From Eledone cirrhosa (Eukaryota), in the NCBI GenBank assembly GCA_964016885.1, contig OZ024740.1, forward strand, positions 284,952,001 to 285,016,000: a stretch of DNA of 64,000 bases, read 5' to 3'. Position 1 is the first letter of the stretch, and each line of letters begins with the position of its first letter. A model generated the notes under the pieces. It worked only from the letters and a program-made list of their open reading frames with translations. It ran no database searches and was not told the origin of the DNA. Positions 1,870 to 63,450 of the stretch are shown piece after piece. A program made the position numbers and the translations under genes.

Positions 1870-3290
1870 ATGTGCATGCAAACATTGTCAAAAACTTGCA
1901 GCTTGTGTAAATCTTGCTGCGCTTATTGGCCACAGATCACAGCCAGAGAGGAGGATAGTGTGAACAAGTTCTTGATTGATGTGGATTGTTTAGACTGGAT
2001 GGATCTCTGGCTTAGATCATAGTCAGCCTTGAAGACAACAGAATGCAGTGCATGCATGGTTAATGAGGAGATCTATCTCATTTTTATCTTAGCCTATGGC
2101 AGTGAAAGGCATGCAGAGTTACTTGAGTTAATCAACCTCTTCCAAAATCTTGCCAGTGAGTATAACAGGGACCCTTTTCAGAAGGTAAGTTAGCAACAGA
2201 TAATATCTTTGTCTTGATTACATTGATCTTCATGCCAACATTCTGTGTGTACACACTGAGGCATTCAATGGCTGAGTGAACATAGATTTAGTTTTTGTCA
2301 ACTATTACAAGATCAGTGACACTAAAGTCTCTTTCCTAGCAATGACTGGAAAATCCTTCAAAGCATGCTCAGCAATCCAGTTGAAGTGTGTTGAAGATAG
2401 AACACAGCCCAGCCAGACAAATCTCGGAGGAGCAAGATTCCTCATCATAATAGCAAACTTTTGCTTATGTGAAACTATAGTACATTCTTATTAATTTCAG
2501 TAATTTCACAGGTAGCCCATCTGTGACCATGATGTCATAGTGTGTGCTGCAACTGACAGACTCAAAGGCTGCTGCAAAGTGGACAAAACAGCTAATTGTT
2601 TGCCATTACTAGCTTAAAAGTTGTTTCAGAATCCTTCTCAATTATGCCATTGGGATTTTAGACAGTAGCACCTTGGACATCAAGAATTATTTCACTTGTG
2701 AGTGGCAGCCCTTCGTGGTCAATCTTAGATGTTGATACAGTCTTTGCAAATCCCCAAAGAAGCTGCACGCTCCATGTCTAGAGTGATGGTGCACCAGCAT
2801 TCATTACTATCTGTGAGCAGGGAGGACTGTCTGCCTTCTAAGACGCTGATACTTAGCAGCACTACTGTTTTAGGCATGATTGAAGCTTTTGGCAAGTTCT
2901 ATTGTATGATGTGAGATAAAAAAATTTTGACTACACTTTCTATGTCCTAATTCTTAAATCGCTACCACATGTAGGTGATGTTTCAAGTTGTGTTATTCAT
3001 CTTTGGTCATGGGTTCAGTTTGTTTTAGCATGTTCAAGCCATCAAAACAGTTACACAATTCTAGTTGAAAGCCTGTGGCTGTGTCACTGCATTTCAGCTT
3101 TGCAATATCATATATTGAGGACTTCTTAGATGGTTTGTTGGTCTTTAAATGCATGCAAAGTTTCACCCATACCAAAGTATGATCTGAGCCATTCTCATTT
3201 CCCATTTCAGCACCACGATAAGATCATCAGTCAAGTGAACAACTGGCCCAGTGAGATCAAACAAGGATGTAGCCGATGTTCTCTAGTAAA
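1870..3290 (-). mobile_element. degraded RTE-like LINE (endonuclease end to RT)
   Basis: ORF 2993-3205 gives GSDHTLVWVKL...YDIAKLK...FQLELCNCF, matching the APE C-terminal SDH motif and linker of RTE elements. The rest has many stops. Boundaries approximate. Confidence 0.65.
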
Positions 3291-9663: not shown

Positions 9664-9708
9664 TGTCTGATGATCCTGTAAGTACACAGGTGAAACTCCA
9701 CAGTTACA
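9664..9708 (+). ncRNA. type I hammerhead ribozyme motif (probably weakened)
   Basis: tgt-CTGATGA-t-cctgt-aagtac-acagg-t-GAAAC-tccaca-GTT-aca. Full core, 5-bp stem II closed by U-U, short stem III, only 3-bp stem I. Follows a (TA)/(TATG) microsatellite. Confidence 0.55.
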
Positions 9709-26000: not shown

Positions 26001-29000
26001 GCTGCCGGACGAAAGGGCAAGGCCCCCTCCTCTTTGTTGCGGCCGCGGATGGCCAACATAACCCCAACCCCATCCACCTCACCCCTCCCTGCGCCCCACC
26101 CACCAAACGCAATCCAAAACTTCAAAGTTGGTACCATGAACATAGGCACCTTAAAAGGCCGCGCTAACGAGGTTGTAGAAATGCTTGAACGTAAGGAGGT
26201 TGATGTTTGCTGTATCCAAGAGACCAGGTGGAGGGGCGGGTCTGCTAGATTCATTGTGGGTAAAAAAACGATGCTATAACCTTTTCTGGGTGGGAAATGA
26301 CAATGGGCTGGGTGGGGTAGGAATCATGTTAGCAGAAAAATGGGTGGATAAGATAATAGACGTAAATAGAGTGAATGACAGAATAATTAAAATAAGACAT
26401 GTTCTAAATAGAACTACTGTGACGGTAATATCTGCGTACGCGCCCCAATCTGGACTGCTTGGCGCTATAAAAGACAGTTTCTATGAGACACTGATGCTCA
26501 CTACCTCCCAAATAACCGACAGTGACTATATAATTATTGCTGGCGACCTAAATGGTCACGTTGAACAACATTGTGACGGCTATGATGGAATACACAGAGG
26601 CTATGGGTTTGGTACTAGAAATGAGGAAGGCTCCGGAATCCTGGAATTCTGTGACGCAAATAACCTAACTAATCTGTAACACAAACTTCAAAAAACGAGA
26701 CAATCACTTGATCACCTACAGATCAGGGGAACATACCTGTTGTAAACACTAAATTTCTCCCCCATGAAGGATGTACCTCCCAACATAGACTCATAATTAG
26801 CGACCTCATAGTCAGGACGAGACGTACACGATAGCAGAAGAGGACTTTCCTCAGGAGAAAAATATGGAAGCTAAAGGACCCCACAGCCAGAAATAAATTT
26901 AAAAGCATATTACTTGATGCTTTCGACAGTAAGGAAGAGCACTTAGAGTCGTACAATATAGAGGAACAGTGGGAATTCCTGAAAGCAAACCTGCTGATGG
27001 CAGCAGACAAAGTCTGTGGCTGGAGCAGGCCTATAGGCAGGAGGAGAGTAACATGGTGGTGGAACAGTAAGGTGGAGGAGTCAATTAAGGCCAAAAAGCA
27101 GGCTTGGAAAGTATGGAAGGATGGGGGAAGTAGAGAAGACTATCAAGTGGCCAGGAGGGAAGCTAGGAGACAAGTGTACTTCGCAAGAAGGGAAGCAGAG
27201 GAAAGAAAGTTCAAGCATGTTCTACAACGCGAGGACCAAAAACGTGAGGTGTTCAGGATTGCTAGGCAATGTGTCAAGGAAAACCGTGATATTGTCGGGG
27301 AGAAGTGTGTACTTAATGATGATGGTGTACTTGCCATCACTGACACTGATAAGAAGGTAGCCTGACGAAAGGCTACTAAATGAGGAGAATAAATGGGAGA
27401 AAGACAGTCTCCCCCACATCGACCCAATAGAGGGACCAGCAGTGTTAGTCGAAGGTAGTATAATAAGTAAGGCAATCAAAGATATGAAGACGGGCAAGGC
27501 GGCTGGGCCTTCGGAAATAGTTGCTGAAATTCTGAAAGCCTCTGGAACGGTGGGACACACCATGGTCAGCCGGATAGTAAATCAAGTCATACAGAATGGG
27601 GTTGTTCCGAAGGACTGGCGTAGCAGCATCATCATTAACTGCTACAAGGGTAAAGGAGATGCCCTAGATAGGAGTAACTATAGAGGCATTAAATTAATCA
27701 ACCAGGTCATGAAGGTCACAGAAAAAGTAATAGCGCAACTAATCAGAGAGAGAATTGATCTAGATGAAATGCAGTTCGGGTTTGTGTCAGGCAAAAGTAC
27801 CACAGACGCTCTTTTCATTGTACGACAACTACAGGAGAAGTACCTAGCTAAAAGTAAACCCCTTAGCTTTTGTTGACTTGGAGAAAGCCTTCGACAGAGT
27901 CCCCCGTTCCATTATCTGGTGGGCTCTTAGAAAACTAGGTGTTGATGAATGGCTTGTGAGAGCTATACAAGCCATGTATAAAGAAACAGTCAGCAAGGTT
28001 AGAATTAACGAATATAGTGAAGAGTTTAGCGTATAAGTTGGTGCTCATCAGGGCTCTGTTCTTAGCCCCCTACTATTTATTATTGCCCTTCAGGCTATAA
28101 CAGAGGAGTTCAAGACCGGCTGCCCATGGGAACTCCTATATGCAGATGATCTAACGCTCATAGCTGAATCAATGGCTGAACTAGAGAAGAAATTCCAAAC
28201 ATGGAAGCATGACCTAGAATCAAAAGGCCTTAAAATTAACCTGTCTAAGACTAAAGTTCTAGTTTGTAGGAAGGAAAATAGGGTGCCGGTCCCATCCGGG
28301 AAATGACCATGCTCAGTGTGTAGGAAAGGAGTGGGTAGAAACTCCATTTTATGTCCCAAATGCAAAGTATGGGTGCATAAAAGATGTAGTGGGATCACAG
28401 GTAAGCTAACTAAGAACATAGATTTTATATGTGGCCGGTGCTCTGGTGCAATAAGTAGCAGCAAGTCCCCACAGAATACTAGCTCTTTCAATTGCGCAGA
28501 GGGTTCTATAGAAATAGTGGACAGCTTCCGTTACCTGGGTGACAAAATCAGCAGTGGGGCAGGGTGCTCTGAAAGTACAGTAGCTTGGGGCAGGGTGCTC
28601 TGAAAGTACAGTAGCTAGAGTCAGAACTGGATGGAAAAAGTTCAGAGAGCTTATACCACTATTAGCCGCTAAAGGGTTCTCCCTAAAAATGAAAGGCAGG
28701 CTGTATGATGCCTGCATACGAACAGCAATGTTGCATGGCAGTGAGACCTGGACATTGTGTGCAGAGGATATACGCAGACTAGAGAGGAATGAAGCTTGCA
28801 TGCTCCGCTGGATGTGTAATAGTAATATACGTTAACGGCAAAGCATAAACGAACTAAGGAAAAAATTAGAAATAAGAGGGATCAGATGTTGTTTACTCGA
28901 GAGAAGGCTACGTTGGTATGGTCATGTGATGCGCATGAAAGACGACAGCTGTATAACAAAGTGCAGGGCAATAAAAATAGACGGTAGCCACGGAGTAGGT

Positions 29001-45937: not shown

Positions 45938-46275
45938 TTCATCATCATTTCATTTTACGTCTGCTTTTCCCTGCTTACAAGGGTGGGACGGGAACAGATT
46001 CTGGCTTGATTTCTACAGCTAGATGCCTTTCCTAACACCAACCTCATTTACAGTGAGTGCTCGGTGCTTTTTTGCCGTGGCACCTCCACGACCACTTTGC
46101 AGTGGAATGATAGGGACCCCAGTCCCTATCATCTCATTTCTACAGCTGAGGAAACTGGAGCAATGTGAAATAAAGTGTCTTGCTCAAGGAAACAACACAT
46201 CACCCGGTCTGAGAATTGAACTCACAACCTTTCGATTGCAAGACCAATGCTCTAACCACTAAGCCATGTGCCTCC
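45935..46275 (-). mobile_element. tRNA-head SINE with RTE-derived tail (family B)
   Basis: A box tggcttagtgg, B box gagttcaattc, CORE-like ccttgagcaagacacttt, tail ggttggtgttaggaaaggcatctagctgtagaaa and (ATG)n. Flanked by (TA)n. Confidence 0.9.
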
Positions 46276-46330: not shown

Positions 46331-46391
46331 TATTCTATTATATATATTTCAAGGGTACCAAAACTTTGGTACGCTCTCATCAGATAAAATA
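46331..46391 (-). ncRNA. intact minimal type I hammerhead ribozyme
   Basis: tattttat-CTGATGA-gag-c-gtaccaa-agtt-ttggtac-c-ctt-GAAA-t-atat-a-TA^atagaata. 8-bp stem I, ~10-bp stem II, minimal stem III with palindromic ATAT loop, AUA cleavage triplet. Lies in a ~165-bp element between (TA)n runs. Confidence 0.85.
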
Positions 46392-46868
46392 CAAAATTTG
46401 TTTTATAAATAGTGACATACCCAGGAATCGGACCTTAACGGTTCAAGTTCCGTATATATATATATACATATATATATATATTGTAACTCTCAGATACGAG
46501 TTACAAGTCGGGAAAGCCACACAGCTCTCCATCTCTATTAACCTTTGAAAATCATGAAACTTGTGAAACTAGTAAAGTTATAAATTATTGTAAATAAACC
46601 TTCTTTAAAGTCTCCAATTGCATTTTCAACTTCTTTTTCCTAGATACGTGTGTGTGTGTGGTTATTACCAGGAAGGGCAGCCTGCTGTAAATATTGCCTC
46701 AAAATGTCCTGTTCAACCCATGCTAGCATAGAAAAGTCGATGGAAAAACAATGAAGATAAGGATAAACACACACACATATATATGGTAACTATAGAAGAG
46801 GAAGACCTAAGAAAACTTGGGATGAAGTGATAAAAGCTGGCCTTGCCAAATTAAACCTCACAAAGGAG

Positions 46869-48604
46869 GGCTCTGTTCTTAGCCCCCTACTATTTATTAT
46901 TGCCCTTCAGGCTATAACAGAGGAGTTCAAGACCGGCTGCCCATGGGAACTCCTATACGCAGATGATCTAACGCTCATAGCTGAATCAATGACCGAACTA
47001 GAGAAGAAATTCCAAACATGGAAGCACGGCCTAGAATCAAAAGGCCTTAAAATTAACCTGGCTAAGACTAAAGTTCTAGTTTGTAGGAAAGAAAATAGGG
47101 CGGCGGTCCCTTCCGGGAAATGGCCATGCTCAGTGTGTAGGAAAGGCGTAGGTAGAAACTCCATTTTATGTCCCCAATGCAAAGTATGGGTGCATAAAAG
47201 ATGTAGTGGGATCACAGGTAAGCTAACTAAGAACATAGATTTTACATGTGGCCGGTGCTCTGGTGCAATAAGTAGCAGCAAGTGCCCACTAAATACTAGC
47301 TCTTTCAATTGCGCAGAGGGTTCTATAGAAATAGTGGACAGCTTCCGTTACCTGGGTGACAAAATCAGCAGTGGGGGAGGGTGCTCTGAAAGTACAGTAG
47401 CTAGAGTCAGAACTGGATGGAAAAAGTTCAGAGAGCTTATACCACTATTAGCTGCTAAAGGGTTCTCCCTAAAAATGAAAGGCAGGTTGTACGATGCCTG
47501 CATACGAACAGCAATGCTGCATGGCAGTGAGACCTGGGCATTGTGTGCAGAGGATATACGCAGACTAGAGAGGAACGAAGCTTGCATGCTCCGCTGGATG
47601 TGAACGGCTAAGCATAAACGAACTAAGCAAAAAATTAGAAATAAGAGGGATCAGATGTTGTTTACTCGAGAGAAGGCTACGTTGGTACGGTCACGTGATG
47701 CGCATGAAAGACGACAGCTGTATAACAAAGTGCAGGGCAATAAAGATAGACGGTAGCCACGGAGTAGGCAGACCCAGAAAAACCTGGGACGACATGATAA
47801 ATTCCGACCTCACACGCTTACACATCTCCAAGACAATGTCACTAGACCGAGACCTTTGGCGGTACTCAGTAACAGAGAAGACCCGCCTTACCTAAATATA
47901 TAGTAAAACCTACTCCAGCCAGTAGGCATCTCTATCAAAATACACCCCCGTCCCACCACCCCCACCCCATACACACCGCCCCTGTCAATGTAAAGTTATG
48001 TTGGTGCCACAACATCCAGGCCGAAACAAATGAGGTCGTGTAGGTGTCACGACAAAAAAACACACAGTCCACGCTGTAATGTGGCCGTGTAGGTAACACG
48101 GTAAAAACCTCCCAGCCCCACACTGTAAATGTGGTTGGTGTTAGGAAGGGCATCCAGCTGTAGAAAACCTGCCAGACAGTCCATGCTGTAATGTGGCCGT
48201 GTAGGCAACACGGTAAAAACCTCCCAGCCCCACACTGTAAATGTGGTTGGTGTTAGGAAGGGCATCCAACTGTAGAAAACCCGCCAGACAGTCCACGCTG
48301 TAAATGTGGCCGTGTAGGCAACACGGTAAAAACCTCCCAGCCCCACACTGTAAATGTGGTTGGTGTTAGGAAGGGCATCCAACTGTAGAAAACCCGCCAG
48401 ACAGTCCACGCTGTAAATGTGGCCGTGTAGGCAACACGGTAAAAACCTCCCAGCCCCACACTGTAAATGTGGTTGGTGTTAGGAAGGGCATCCAGCTGTA
48501 GAAAACCCGCCAGACAGTCCTATGCGAGCAAGACAACCACTCTTGCCTCAAGTGGGAAAACCCCCGTCCAAACCCATGCAGGCGTGGAACACGGACGCTA
48601 AACC

Positions 48605-57699: not shown

Positions 57700-59245
57700 G
57701 TGGGTTACACCTTAATCACTCGTATCGCAAACCAAGTAATACAGAGGAGGGGTCATAACGAATGATTGGCAGAGCAACCTCATCATCAACTGGTACAAGG
57801 GCAAAAGAGATGCACTAGATACAGGAAACTATAGAGGCATCAAGTTGATGAATCAGGTCATGAAAGTTAAAAGTGTTATTGTACAACTGATTAAGGACCG
57901 AGTTAATCTAGATAAGATGCAATTTAGATTTGTGCCAGGTAAAAGTACCGGTGATGCACTCTTCCGCGTGAGGCAACTACAGGAGAAGTACCGAGCTAAA
58001 AGTAAACCACTCTACTTGGTATTTGTTGACCTGGAGAAAGCATTTGACAAAGTCCCCAATTCCATATGGTGGGCTCTTAGAAAACTAGAGTGGCTTGTGA
58101 GGACAGTACAAGCCATATACAAAAGAACAGTCTGGGCACTGTATGCAGAGGACCTACGAAGATTGGAAAACAAATGAATCTTGCCTACTTCGATGGATGT
58201 ATAATAGTAGTGTAGATGAATGGCCAAACATCAATGAACTGAGAGAGCAACTGGGTATAAGAGGGACCAGATTCAGTGTATATGAGAGGAGATTGTAGTG
58301 GTATGGACAAGTGATTTCTACAAGTAGCTGTAGAAAAAAGCCCAGGGTACTCAAAATCAATGGAAACCATCAAAGAACACCTAGGAAAGCTTGGAATGAG
58401 GTAATAAAAGCTGATATTGCACAATTAAACCTCCCAAATGAGATGACACAAGATCGAGATCTCTGACGTTACACTGTACTGCCGAAGACCCACCTTCCCA
58501 TATGCAAAGGATGAAACAAACATGTAGAGGGCACTAGTCTGTACCAATCTTCTCCCTACCCCCTCCCCCATTCATGTTTTTCAGTCTTAATACTCTGCCC
58601 TCACCAACTGAATATTCTACTCACTGCATCCATGTTCAACTTGCATGCCTCCTCCCCTCCCCAACTTCCACACTCCTAAGATTTCCTGTTCAACTCATGC
58701 ATCCAAGCATGGAAAGTTAGATACGCTCCAAATCTGCTTTCCCACCCCTCCTATAATGCTGATGACATGACCCCTCCCCCACAAAAAAAAGAAGCACTTT
58801 GTCCACCCTGTATGACGATCTGTTGCCACAACAAAAGCACCCAGTACATTTTGTAAGGTAGTCGTACTGGTAACATGACAAGAGGCAACTCCTAATCCAC
58901 TCTATAAGATGGTTGTGGTTGTGCTGGTGGCATGACAAGGGGCTTCCAGTCCACCCTGTATTGAGGTTGTGCTGGTGACATGAGAAAAAGTACCCAGTTC
59001 ACTCTGTAAGATAGTCGTGTTGATGACATGAGAAGAAAAACAAAATATGCGCCCAGTCCACCCTGTTTTATGGTCGCTTCAGTGCCATGATAAAAAAATA
59101 CCGTTCACACAGTAACATGGCTGATGTTAGGAAGAGCATCCAGCCATAGAAACCAAGCCAAAATACAGATCTTGATTTGAATTATCTCATAACATGACAA
59201 CCTGTCTAATCCATGCAAGCATGGAACAAGGATGTTAAACAATGA
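57700..59245 (+). mobile_element. degraded, internally deleted RTE LINE with modular tail
   Basis: ORF 57845-58177 MQFRFVPGKSTGDALFRVRQLQEKY...VDLEKAFDKVP jumps straight to WALYAEDLRRLE. Tail modules at 58740-59245. Confidence 0.85.
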
Positions 59246-60163: not shown

Positions 60164-62205
60164 TCATCATCATCAACGTTTAACGTCCGTGTTCCACGCT
60201 TGCATGGGTTTGGACGGGGGTTTTCCCACTTGAGGCAAGAGTGATTGTCTTGCTCGCATAGGACTGTCTGGCAGGTTTTCTACAGTTGGATGCCCTTCCT
60301 AACACCAACCACATTTACAGTGTGGGTCTGGGAGGTTTTTACCGTGTTGCCTACACAGCCACATTACAGCGTGGACTGTGTGTTTTTTTGTCGTGACACC
60401 TACACGATCTCATTTGTTTCGGCCTGGATGGTGTGGCACCAACATAACTTTACATAGAAGGGGAGTGGGGGGTGGGGGTGTATTTTGTTAGAGATGCCTA
60501 CTGACTGTAGTAGGTTTTACTATGTATTTAGGTAAGGCGGGTCTTCTCTATTACTGAGTACCGCCAAAGGTCTCGGTCCAGTGACATTGTCTTGGAGAGG
60601 TGTAAGTGTGTGAGGTCGGAGTTTATCAGCTCGTCCCAGGCTTCTCTAGGTCTGCCTATTCCGTGGCTACCGTCTATCTTTATTGCCCTGCACTTTGTTA
60701 TACAGCTATCGACTTTCATGCGCATCACGTGTCCATACCAACGTAGCCTTCTCTCGAGTAAACAACATCTGATCCCTCTTATTTCTAATTTTTTCTTTAG
60801 TTCGTTTATGCTTTGCCGTTCACGTATATTACTATTAAACATCCAGCGGAGCATGCAAGCTTCGTTCCTCTCTAGTCTGCGTATATCCTCTGCACACAAT
60901 GCCCAGGTCTCACTGCCATGCAACATTGCTGTTCGTATGCAGGCATCATACAACCTGCCTTTCGTTTTTAGGGAGAACCCTTTAGCGGCTAATAGTGGTA
61001 TAAGCTCTCTGAACTTTTTCCATCCAGTTCTGACTCTAGCTACTGTACTTTCAGAGCACCCTCCCCCACTGCTGATTTTGTCACCCAGGTAACGGAAGCT
61101 GTCCACTATTTCTATAGAGCCCTCTGCGCAGTTGAAAGAGCTAGTATTTTGTGGGCACTTGCTGCTACTTATTGCACCAGAGCACCGGCCACATGTGAAA
61201 TCTATGTTCTTAGTTAGCTCACCTGTGATCCCACTACATCTTTTATGCACCCATGCTCTGCATTTCTGACACAAAATGGAGTTTCTACCTACGCCTTTCC
61301 TACACACTGAGCATGGCCACTTCCCGGAAGGGACCACCGCCTTATTTTCTTTCCTACAAACTAGAACTTTGGTCTTAGCCAGATTCATTTTAAGGCCTTT
61401 TGATTCTAGGCCGTGCTTCCATGTTTGGAATTTCTTCTCTAGCTCGGCCATTGATTCAGCTATGAGTGTTAGGTCGTCTGCGTATAGGAGTTCCCATGGG
61501 CAGCCGGTCTTGAACTCCTCTGTTATAGCCTGAAGGGCAATAATAAATAGTAGGGGGCTGAGAACAGAGCCCTGATGGACGCCAACTTTTACGCTAAACT
61601 CTTCACTATATTCGTTGTTAATTCTAACCTTGCTGACTGTTTCTTTATACATGGCTTGTATAGCTCTCACAAGCCATTCATCGACACCTAGTTTTCTAAG
61701 GGCCCACCAGATAATGGAACGGGGGACTCTGTCGAAGGCTTTCTCCAAGTCGACAAAAGCTAAGTAGAGGGGTTTACTTTTAGCTAGGTACTTCTCCTGT
61801 AGTTGTCGTACAATGAAAAGTGCGTCTGTGGTACTTTTGCCTGACACAAACCCGAACTGCATTTCATCTAGGTCAATTCTCTCTCTGATTAGTTGCGCTA
61901 TTACCTTTTCCGTGACCCTCATGACCTGGTCGATTAATTTAATGCCTCTATAGTTACTCCTATCTAGGGCATCTCCTTTACCCTTATAACAGTTAACGAT
62001 GATGCTGCTATGCCAGTCCTTCGGAACAACCCCATTCTGTACGACTTGGTTAACTATCCGGGTGACCATGGTGTGTCCCACCGTGCCAGATGCTTTCAGC
62101 ATCTCAGCAACTATTTCCGAAGGCCCAGCCGCCTTACCCGTCTTCATATCCTTGATTGCCTTACTTATTATACTACCCTCGACTAACACTGCTGGTCCCT
62201 CTATT

Positions 62206-62207
<2 letters not shown>
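60164..62207 (-). mobile_element. 5'-truncated young RTE LINE
   Basis: Same family as 26001-29498. (ATG)n tail at ~60164-60175. 5' end abuts (TA)n at 62208. Confidence 0.96.
60528..62207 (-). CDS. uninterrupted RTE reverse transcriptase ORF with PHD-like finger (endonuclease lost by truncation)
   Basis: ~560 open codons from PIEGPAVL to EKTRLT*, with NYRGIKL, QFGF, DLEKAFD, HQGSVLSP, YADD and FRYLG. The listed N-terminus (MFVHIG...IYIY) is microsatellite read-through. Confidence 0.85.
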
Positions 62208-62241
<34 letters not shown>

Positions 62242-62770
62242 CCTATATGTACAAACATTATATATATATATATATTATGTATGTATCAAGAGTAATTCTT
62301 GAGTGGAGTAGTAGTATGAAGTTAATTATATTTTCTTATCTATCAAATGAGAGGTATTATTGTTGACTTGCCTTATCTGAACAGATCAAAAGCTCAAGTA
62401 AATTTGGACTACTTTCAGTCAACCATTCATTCTTTCATTCAAACTCTCTGAGCTGCCCATGTCCATTGATCACATGCTGGTTGTAAACCTTCTAAAAATA
62501 TTTCCTAATAAATTCACTATCCCAGCTCCACAGTTCTATGTTAGTTGTTAGGCATTTATTAATGTATTCTCTTCACGTTTTTATTTTTTAATATAATCAT
62601 TGTCAATGTCTTTGGTTTATTCATATCATATATATATATATATGTGTATTGGGATTTTGTATTTCTAAAGAAATATGGTATGTTTATAAAAAACATTTAG
62701 AAAGCCGTAGCTATGCAAAAAGACTGGCAGCTATCACCACCTGGCGGTATTCAGCAGATGCAGGGGTGAC

Positions 62771-62816
62771 AATCGTCTATGCATTTCAAACTGAACTGGT
62801 TCTCATCAGGATGATT
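62771..62816 (-). ncRNA. minimal type I hammerhead ribozyme (copy 1)
   Basis: aatcatc-CTGATGA-gaac-cagttca-gttt-GAAA-tgca-TA^gacgatt. Palindromic TGCA loop in place of stem III. Confidence 0.8.
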
Positions 62817-63112
62817 CCTCCTGTTCTTGCAACTGCTGGACTTTGAAAACAGGCGAGAATATATAGTTTTCTCGTCTGTGTAAATGAGGTGATTAATCTC
62901 ATTTGCATATGAAGCTGTATAAGTTGGCTCAACTTATAATAGAATTGAATTAGAATTTAGCTTCGAGCATAGCTGTATACAGATATGTATTGGAATTTCG
63001 TATTTCTAAAGAAATTCGGTATGTTTATAAATAAACATTTAGAAAGCAGTAGCTATGCAAAAACACTGGCAGTTATCGCCACCTGGCGGTGTCCAGCAGA
63101 TGCAAGGGACAC

Positions 63113-63158
63113 AATTGTTGATGCATTTCAAACTGAACTGGTTCTCATCAGAACGATC
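63113..63158 (-). ncRNA. minimal type I hammerhead ribozyme (copy 2)
   Basis: gatcgtt-CTGATGA-gaac-cagttca-gttt-GAAA-tgca-TC^aacaatt. Confidence 0.8.
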
Positions 63159-63192
63159 CTGCCCGCTCTTGCAACTGCTGGACTTTGAAAAC

Positions 63193-63450
63193 TGTGATTG
63201 GAAAAGGTTTATATCATTAGCAGTCTTCCTCTCAATTTATCCTGTACATCTTCTACAAGCAAAGTTCTCTCTTCCTGTTAGTCTACTCGTTATCCCACTA
63301 CATCTTTTGTGTACCCCAAATTTACATTGTGTATATTGTATGGAGTTTATGCCTACTCCTCTTCTGCATATTGAGCATGGCCACTTCCCTGAGGGAATAT
63401 GGGTCCAGTCTTCTCTCCTACTCACTAGCACATTAGTTTTGGTTACGTTT
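63193..63450 (-). mobile_element. older RTE fragment (PHD region)
   Basis: PSGKWPCSICRRGVGINSIQYTQCKFGVHKRCSGITSRLTGRENFACRRC. Confidence 0.85.

Follow-up and report, generated by a model that had tools for sequence, protein, structure and literature searches.

A dispersed non-coding hammerhead family of Eledone cirrhosa with insertion anatomy like that of Penelope-like elements

The window (the whole 64,000-nucleotide stretch of Eledone cirrhosa contig OZ024740.1 that was analyzed) contains a decayed hammerhead insertion 1.6 units long, which belongs to a non-coding family, dispersed in the genome, with units of 342 and 323 nt. In our reading, which we give a probability of about 0.85, the family is an animal non-LTR retrozyme that was likely copied into (TA)n by the reverse transcriptase (RT) and GIY-YIG machinery of a Penelope-like element (PLE), probably of Neptune type. 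The family has a conserved hammerhead fold, two fixed 3′ ends and scattered 5′ ends, and its copies include two-armed insertions and seamless runs of more than one unit. Its value lies in this insertion geometry, not in the aged window copy.

Unit positions are numbered from the predicted cut, and the two sites at which 3′ ends cluster are designated S1 (interval +124 to +157) and S2 (interval +165 to +191). The window locus is composed of the following parts.

62645..63192, minus strand: whole insertion, subfamily A, single-armed, 1.6 laps of the 342-nt unit, starting at phase +270 and terminating at S1 (about +135)
62986..63192 (207 bp), minus strand: overlap region, upstream copy, truncated at the 5′ side rather than bounded by a fixed LTR end
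62645..62850 (206 bp), minus strand: downstream copy of the overlap region, terminating at S1
63113..63158, minus strand: hammerhead 1 (whole), with palindromic loop and AUC site; predicted cut 63120/63119
63158-63152 (5′ strand) and 63119-63113 (3′ strand), minus strand: stem I of hammerhead 1
63151-63145, 63144-63130 and 63129-63126, minus strand: CUGAUGA, stem II and GAAA of the hammerhead 1 core
63091..63183, minus strand: extended stem I enclosing hammerhead 1, with about 18 further pairs in the family
62778..63119, minus strand: predicted cut-to-cut monomer of 342 nt and candidate circle (from sequence and circular fold prediction)
62851..62985, minus strand: single-copy part of the unit ('spacer', 135 nt), holding the S1-S2 tail and three hairpins
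62771..62816, minus strand: hammerhead 2, with weakened stem I and AUA site; CUGAUGA at 62809-62803; predicted cut 62778/62777
62628..62644, no strand assigned: (TA)n tract at the 3′ end of the insertion (from sequence)

At its 5′ end the insertion adjoins a LINE-like fragment, and at its 3′ end it runs into (TA)n, the tract at 62628-62644 being the likely target of the window copy. A sequence-only reading of the window had reported two minus-strand repeats of ~206 bp with complete hammerhead cores. This was confirmed for both repeats (207 and 206 bp) and for every core element (CUGAUGA, stem II, GAAA, A-UGCA-U and UH), and the predicted cuts indeed lie 342 nt apart, at 63120/63119 and 62778/62777 on the minus strand. 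The overlap copies (63192-62986 and 62850-62645) are 88% identical at a distance of 342 bp, and the '206-bp repeats and spacer' are 1.6 laps of one circularly permuted 342-nt non-coding unit, not LTRs. Each hammerhead has a stem II of 4 pairs with a 7-nt loop, the palindrome A-UGCA-U and a UH site. Among the 16 matches to CUGANGA...GAAA in the window the identical core is common to these two only. The three spacer hairpins described earlier are present in the predicted fold, and the spacer (62851-62985) is the part of the unit that is best conserved between subfamilies. The predicted fold of the 342-nt circle has a z-score of -6.0 (against 50 dinucleotide shuffles), a value that is uninformative on strand because for the family majority the opposite strand gives a fold that is as good or better.

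Two direct repeats around a short interior, together with a family repeat that starts near TG and ends in CA, would also suit a miniature LTR element, either a TRIM or an LTR retrozyme of the plant type, whose LTRs would measure 206 bp and whose interior would measure 135 bp. Plant LTR retrozymes resemble the window locus in that two hammerheads flank a non-coding monomer (PMC7229834; 2026 preprint), but as described there they have type III hammerheads, fixed LTRs, PBS, PPT and 4-bp duplications. The family has a type I hammerhead and 5′ ends scattered over the unit, and this scatter refutes an LTR origin. Many copies also carry interior sequence outside the supposed LTRs, and neither inverted arms nor microsatellite ends are features of LTR elements. 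The copies in the genome are many and fixed LTR ends are absent (PBS and PPT were inspected by eye). A miniature LTR element has a negligible probability.

The window copy is decayed. It differs from the subfamily A majority at 31 of 547 aligned nt (5.7%), and 11 of the differences are of CpG type. Both cores carry G10.1·U11.1, a CpG-type change at a position where the subfamily has G-C. Stem I had been read as a pair of clean compensatory variants; instead, each copy has 6 of 7 pairs and an A·C mismatch, while the family majority has 7 of 7. The predicted probability of stem II is 0.01-0.05 in the window copies and 0.62 (subfamily A) and 0.98 (subfamily B) in the majorities, and in the downstream copy stem I is predicted not to form. 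All conserved core nucleotides and the palindrome are kept in both hammerheads, and the window locus is one of 13 fetched loci with two matching cores one unit apart. These two features speak for a window locus that is itself transcribed, cut twice and now yielding a 342-nt circular RNA. We consider this unlikely in view of the doubled G10.1·U11.1, the A·C mismatch in each stem I, the 5.7% decay and the loss of stem II and of the downstream stem I in the predicted fold. By these measures the window copy is an ordinary aged insertion with two decayed predicted ribozymes. Because of the decay (G10.1·U11.1 in both cores and A·C in stem I), it is also a poor test substrate; better-preserved hammerhead pairs are found in L008 (subfamily A) and in L192, L203 and L217 (subfamily B).

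The 3.0-Gb genome, which has the window on contig 1, was searched at the DNA level, giving 4,079 first-look candidates, of which 40 were scored. A spacer 20-mer has 1,534 exact matches in the genome (control 0) and is exact in 36 of 73 covering arms that were sampled independently of it, which together give a family size of about 3,000-3,100 arms. The family falls into subfamily A, with a 342-nt unit and 175 intact-core pattern matches, to which the window copy belongs, and subfamily B, with a 323-nt unit and 682 such matches (control 0 for each). Median identity to the own majority is 93-95% in subfamily B (best 98%) and 88-89% in pattern-sampled subfamily A, and subfamily B is therefore the younger. 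The longest ATG frame in a concatemer of the unit has 67 codons (342-nt unit) or 42 codons (323-nt unit). CpG decay is strong throughout the family, which suggests methylation of the copies.

Classical retrozymes often occur in long arrays. The sequence-only reading had proposed a search for further genomic copies and tandem arrays; the copies are there, and long tandem arrays were not found in the assembly (assemblies can collapse arrays), in which no run exceeds 2.3 units. Pairs of spacer motifs at a distance of one unit occur at 17 places in the genome, none of them consecutive. Head-to-tail copies with at least two hammerheads are limited to partial tandems at the window locus and 12 other fetched loci. 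In one copy (L051:1132-1459) a 21-nt piece of the spacer has grown into a minisatellite, and eight same-strand matches at 58-170 kb intervals (G000:C1:143.35-143.97 Mb) are probably a series of segmental duplications.

In the predicted fold of the family majority, a 7-bp stem I with an extension of ~18 pairs and a 4-bp stem II are combined with a helix III of one pair, closed by a palindromic tetraloop. The type I core with stems I and II (CUGANGA, GAAA, UH) is present in the family. Pairing was assessed in an alignment of 54 of the 70 hammerhead rows (16 were omitted, most of them with indels), in which 90.2% of 1,615 cells are paired, compared with 29-42% for slid partners. Between subfamilies A and B, two-sided changes affect three pairs of stem II and one of stem I, and one further pair shows them in 5 rows; this count of pairs was equalled in 229 of 500 shuffles, and few events lie behind the covariation. 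In 202 matches the loop reads AUGCAU. A longer variant, AUGCGCAU, occurs in 4 matches with the palindrome kept, and it is the only insertion variant of the loop that was seen four times.

The hammerhead had previously been called minimal, a term that does not fit its layout. The minimal hammerhead described in PMC4209133 has a helix I of 4-5 bp, a helix II of 7-8 bp and an extra base before stem II. In the family, helix I has 7 bp and a long extension and helix II has 4 bp, as in the canonical retrozyme layout. Rfam hammerhead models, a scan with which had been proposed, had no match in the window at gathering scores, in 62500-63300 at E <= 10 or in four well-preserved loci at E <= 1; such a match does not define a type I hammerhead, and the models may lack cover for a helix III of one pair. 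Rfam miRNA matches in those regions proved to be (TA)n tracts and inverted arms.

The 3′ ends of the insertions cluster at S1 (about +135 to +137) and S2 (about +176 and +185), ~45 nt apart, and 83 of 119 segment 3′ ends fall within +121 to +200. A simple-repeat run is present at 82 of 111 S1/S2 ends, compared with 229 of 1,980 control positions. The 5′ ends are dispersed over the whole unit but are enriched in two stretches, +109-144 and +174-191, each close to one of the 3′ end sites; near S2 (19 observed, 8.6 expected) AT-rich microhomology could also be the cause. A second, inverted arm that is joined head to head with the first is present in 71 of 129 pattern-sampled loci. Both outer ends lie in S1 or S2 in 45 of these two-armed loci, and in 39 of the 45 there is one arm at each site (P = 3e-7); in the remaining 26 at least one end lies outside S1/S2. 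This discordance was first noticed in 20 of 24 loci and then found in 23 of 25 among 60 freshly fetched loci, the S1 and S2 intervals having been set after inspection of the data. The combined arm length exceeds one unit in 38 of 39 S1/S2 loci. Single-armed loci are split about evenly between the two sites: 25 terminate at S1, 23 at S2 and 8 elsewhere. A different hammerhead-like repeat with a longer palindromic loop lies beside family arms in the 5′ flanks of L122, L154 and L231 and at L110:266; in two cases it is positioned across a (TA)n tract from the family arm, which suggests shared target hot spots.

The family carries the marks of PLE mobilization, i.e. 5′ truncation, an inverted arm, a tail and a microsatellite target. 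According to PMC8557442, PLEs show truncation at the 5′ side, inverted 5′ copies, a tail of 30-40 bp that is often one-ended and a bias toward microsatellites and (TA)n. For Poseidon, PMC11167929 reports a protein that cleaves both strands of AT-rich DNA and extends each of them, with reverse transcription starting at two internal RNA sites which bound the tail. Neptune PLEs (PMC8557442) and Poseidon PAc (PMC11167929), as described in these sources, thus share with the family 5′ truncation, the inverted 5′ arm, a tail that may or may not be present between two 3′ ends, insertion into AT-rich or microsatellite DNA and a hammerhead upstream of the ends. Unlike PLEs, the family has no reading frame, and its whole element is one 342- or 323-nt unit. 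We conclude that the family was very probably mobilized by PLE machinery, and a PLE of the Neptune clade is the probable mobilizer.

Candidate donors are present in the same genome. A search for GIY-YIG gave 10,596 candidate matches, of which 150 were scored. Long frames of 938, 1096 and 636 aa combine RT and GIY-YIG with a CxxxxCxxC linker, and the PLE domain set was confirmed in them, the Pfam GIY-YIG match of the 1096-aa frame being below threshold. The CxxxxCxxC linker is given as a Neptune-type motif in PMC8557442. PLE families with long open RT and GIY-YIG frames, most of them of Neptune type, were seen at L099:2809-5622, L101:775-4062, L102:3222-5129 and L109:2144-3574, and inverted two-armed PLE insertions at L104 and L111. 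One coding PLE family has two ends, the tail being present in 5 of 8 copies and absent from 3 of 8, and its hammerhead is a minimal one whose palindrome is GUAC; at L111 one arm of this family has the tail and the other lacks it.

Homology between the unit and PLE ends was searched for with nhmmer and blastn in 46 GIY-YIG loci (from the 150 scored of 10,596 candidates), and none was significant: the searches returned separate insertions of the hammerhead family itself and weak matches only. A likeness between GGAATTCC and GAAATTCC just ahead of the first end site was too weak to serve as a link between the unit and PLEs, and the GIY-YIG match found at L098, at a distance of 3 kb from a core, is part of a distinct PLE that has a hammerhead of its own. 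Two more hammerhead-like families unrelated to the unit were encountered, one at L077:1035, L101:7828, L111:1990 and L113:627 and the other at L110:4266 and L112:6461.

Since truncated PLE ends are common (PMC4209133) and the end anatomy is the same as that of PLEs, the copies could be 5′-truncated pseudo-LTR pieces of an autonomous PLE. This is a very improbable and largely refuted reading. On the 5′ side of the hammerhead the sequence re-enters the unit, inverts or stops, with no common unique upstream body; the locus is not a fragment of a coding PLE. An RT and GIY-YIG frame is absent from the hammerhead element, and the longest ATG frame of the concatemer, at 67 codons, also argues against such an origin. 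An apparently complete PLE at L067, flanked by two dimers that lie 5.1 kb from each other, was rejected, as it is a local duplication around LINE pieces with no PLE frame. Of the earlier proposal, the part that is supported is a retroelement family of the non-LTR retrozyme kind that is non-coding, occurs in many copies, has a conserved type I hammerhead and is tied to PLEs.

If PLE machinery copied the family, the form of its template can be judged from the arms. Repeated passes within a locus are closer to each other than passes from different loci (0.098 versus 0.131 at non-CpG sites, 35 pairs, P = 5e-8; 0.079 versus 0.108 in a second comparison with 16 pairs), and there are no left/right diagnostic columns between passes except two at the ends. 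The cut site is crossed by 149 of 166 arms and crossed twice by 11, the first crossing being largely forced because most arms were sampled on the core; 60 of the 166 arms, from both subfamilies, are longer than one unit. There is no accumulation of 5′ ends at the cut site (2 at +1 to +8, 2.5 expected), which indicates that the cut linear monomer is not the template and that reverse transcription used uncut or re-ligated RNA. Past 290 nt, a threshold chosen after inspection of the data, arms stop at a rate of 0.96 per 100 nt, compared with 0.35 before it, and the increase is sharpest for S1 arms at 290-400 nt.

A circular rather than a linear template is mildly favored, and it explains the arm data without master arrays. 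Uncut linear multimers are a possible template as well. The same family and the same PLE machinery would then act on uncut linear transcripts of 1-2.3 units, whose source would be dispersed copies or arrays that the assembly has collapsed, with circles absent or a side product. This has a lesser but appreciable chance. In the in vitro work with an autonomous PLE reported in PMC11167929, unprocessed RNA was the main substrate, cleavage was dispensable and hammerhead mutants inserted normally; in bioRxiv 10.64898/2026.07.22.740005, 8 of 9 Xenopus dimers are given as showing no cleavage. Arms cross the cut site freely, and the rising stop rate fits finite, short linear templates too. Linear copying should never give daughters longer than their parents, yet arms of more than one unit are found in both subfamilies and no array was found. 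Both passes within a locus carry the same subfamily variants, and no two of 56 single-arm loci have in common a carried-over 5′ flank at one breakpoint; four flank matches among these loci are other repeats at different offsets.

Under the circular reading, two hammerheads of a more-than-unit transcript would pair through the palindrome and excise a monomer, which a host ligase would close into a circle. The PLE protein would cut both strands of a TA tract, and one DNA end would be primed at S1 and the other at S2 within the RNA. Each cDNA would then run backward across the cleavage junction over about one lap or, in some cases, two, and the pair would be joined head to head. Tentatively, at a little below even odds, the copies may be fossils of a rolling reverse transcription in which a borrowed enzyme of Penelope type copied an RNA circle made by the ribozyme. 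In that process the two ends of one double-strand cut were primed at different internal sites, one at each, the re-ligated junction was read through and stops became more frequent after about one lap. If true, this would explain the one-sided tail of PLEs and give direct genomic support to the proposed cycle of PLEs and circRNA retrozymes.

By its sequence-level features the family is an animal non-LTR retrozyme, a class described in coral, mussel and axolotl (PMC7229834) and hence already known in molluscs. As in the retrozymes of that study, the unit is non-coding, 150-450 bp long and of low GC, is present in thousands of copies in a genome that also has PLEs, and carries a type I hammerhead whose helix III is a single pair and whose tetraloop is palindromic, in a strongly self-paired monomer. 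The closest known counterparts are the Mytilus repeats of 350-390 bp and axolotl HHR_Amex1, whose hammerhead layout is similar and for which good cleavage is described for the dimer only (PMC7229834). The family differs from the retrozymes of PMC7229834 in having no long arrays (longest run 2.3 units) and in being known here from genomic DNA alone, and its two-armed, two-end insertion geometry is without description in the available text of that study. Like the vertebrate non-LTR retrozymes of 10.64898/2026.07.22.740005, it consists of dispersed monomers and dimers and co-occurs with Neptune and Poseidon PLEs. A literature search found no paper on a cephalopod retrozyme; Repbase or the supplements of PMC7229834 and the preprint may list the family. 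PMC7229834 names PLEs as a candidate mobilizer of animal retrozymes, and the 2026 preprint, as far as its available text goes, ties vertebrate retrozymes to PLEs by pLTR homology and co-occurrence. In the present family, for which no homology was found, the link is the insertion anatomy itself, as it shows PLE insertion marks directly along with a counted rule of one arm per start site.

The surroundings of the window copy contain other repeats. LINE reverse-transcriptase fragments, which we take from their motifs to be RTE-like, are located at 60528-62285 (minus strand), 26179-27876, 46767-47603 and 57740-58177, and a 585-aa open frame of the LINE-fragment region adjoins the hammerhead insertion. 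A tRNA-like Rfam match barely above the cut-off (46209-46266, minus strand) is probably the head of a SINE. Other CUGANGA...GAAA motifs, in some of which stem II can pair, occur at 46383, 31264 and 19992 (minus strand) and at 9667 (plus strand), and these may be hammerhead cores of other repeat families.
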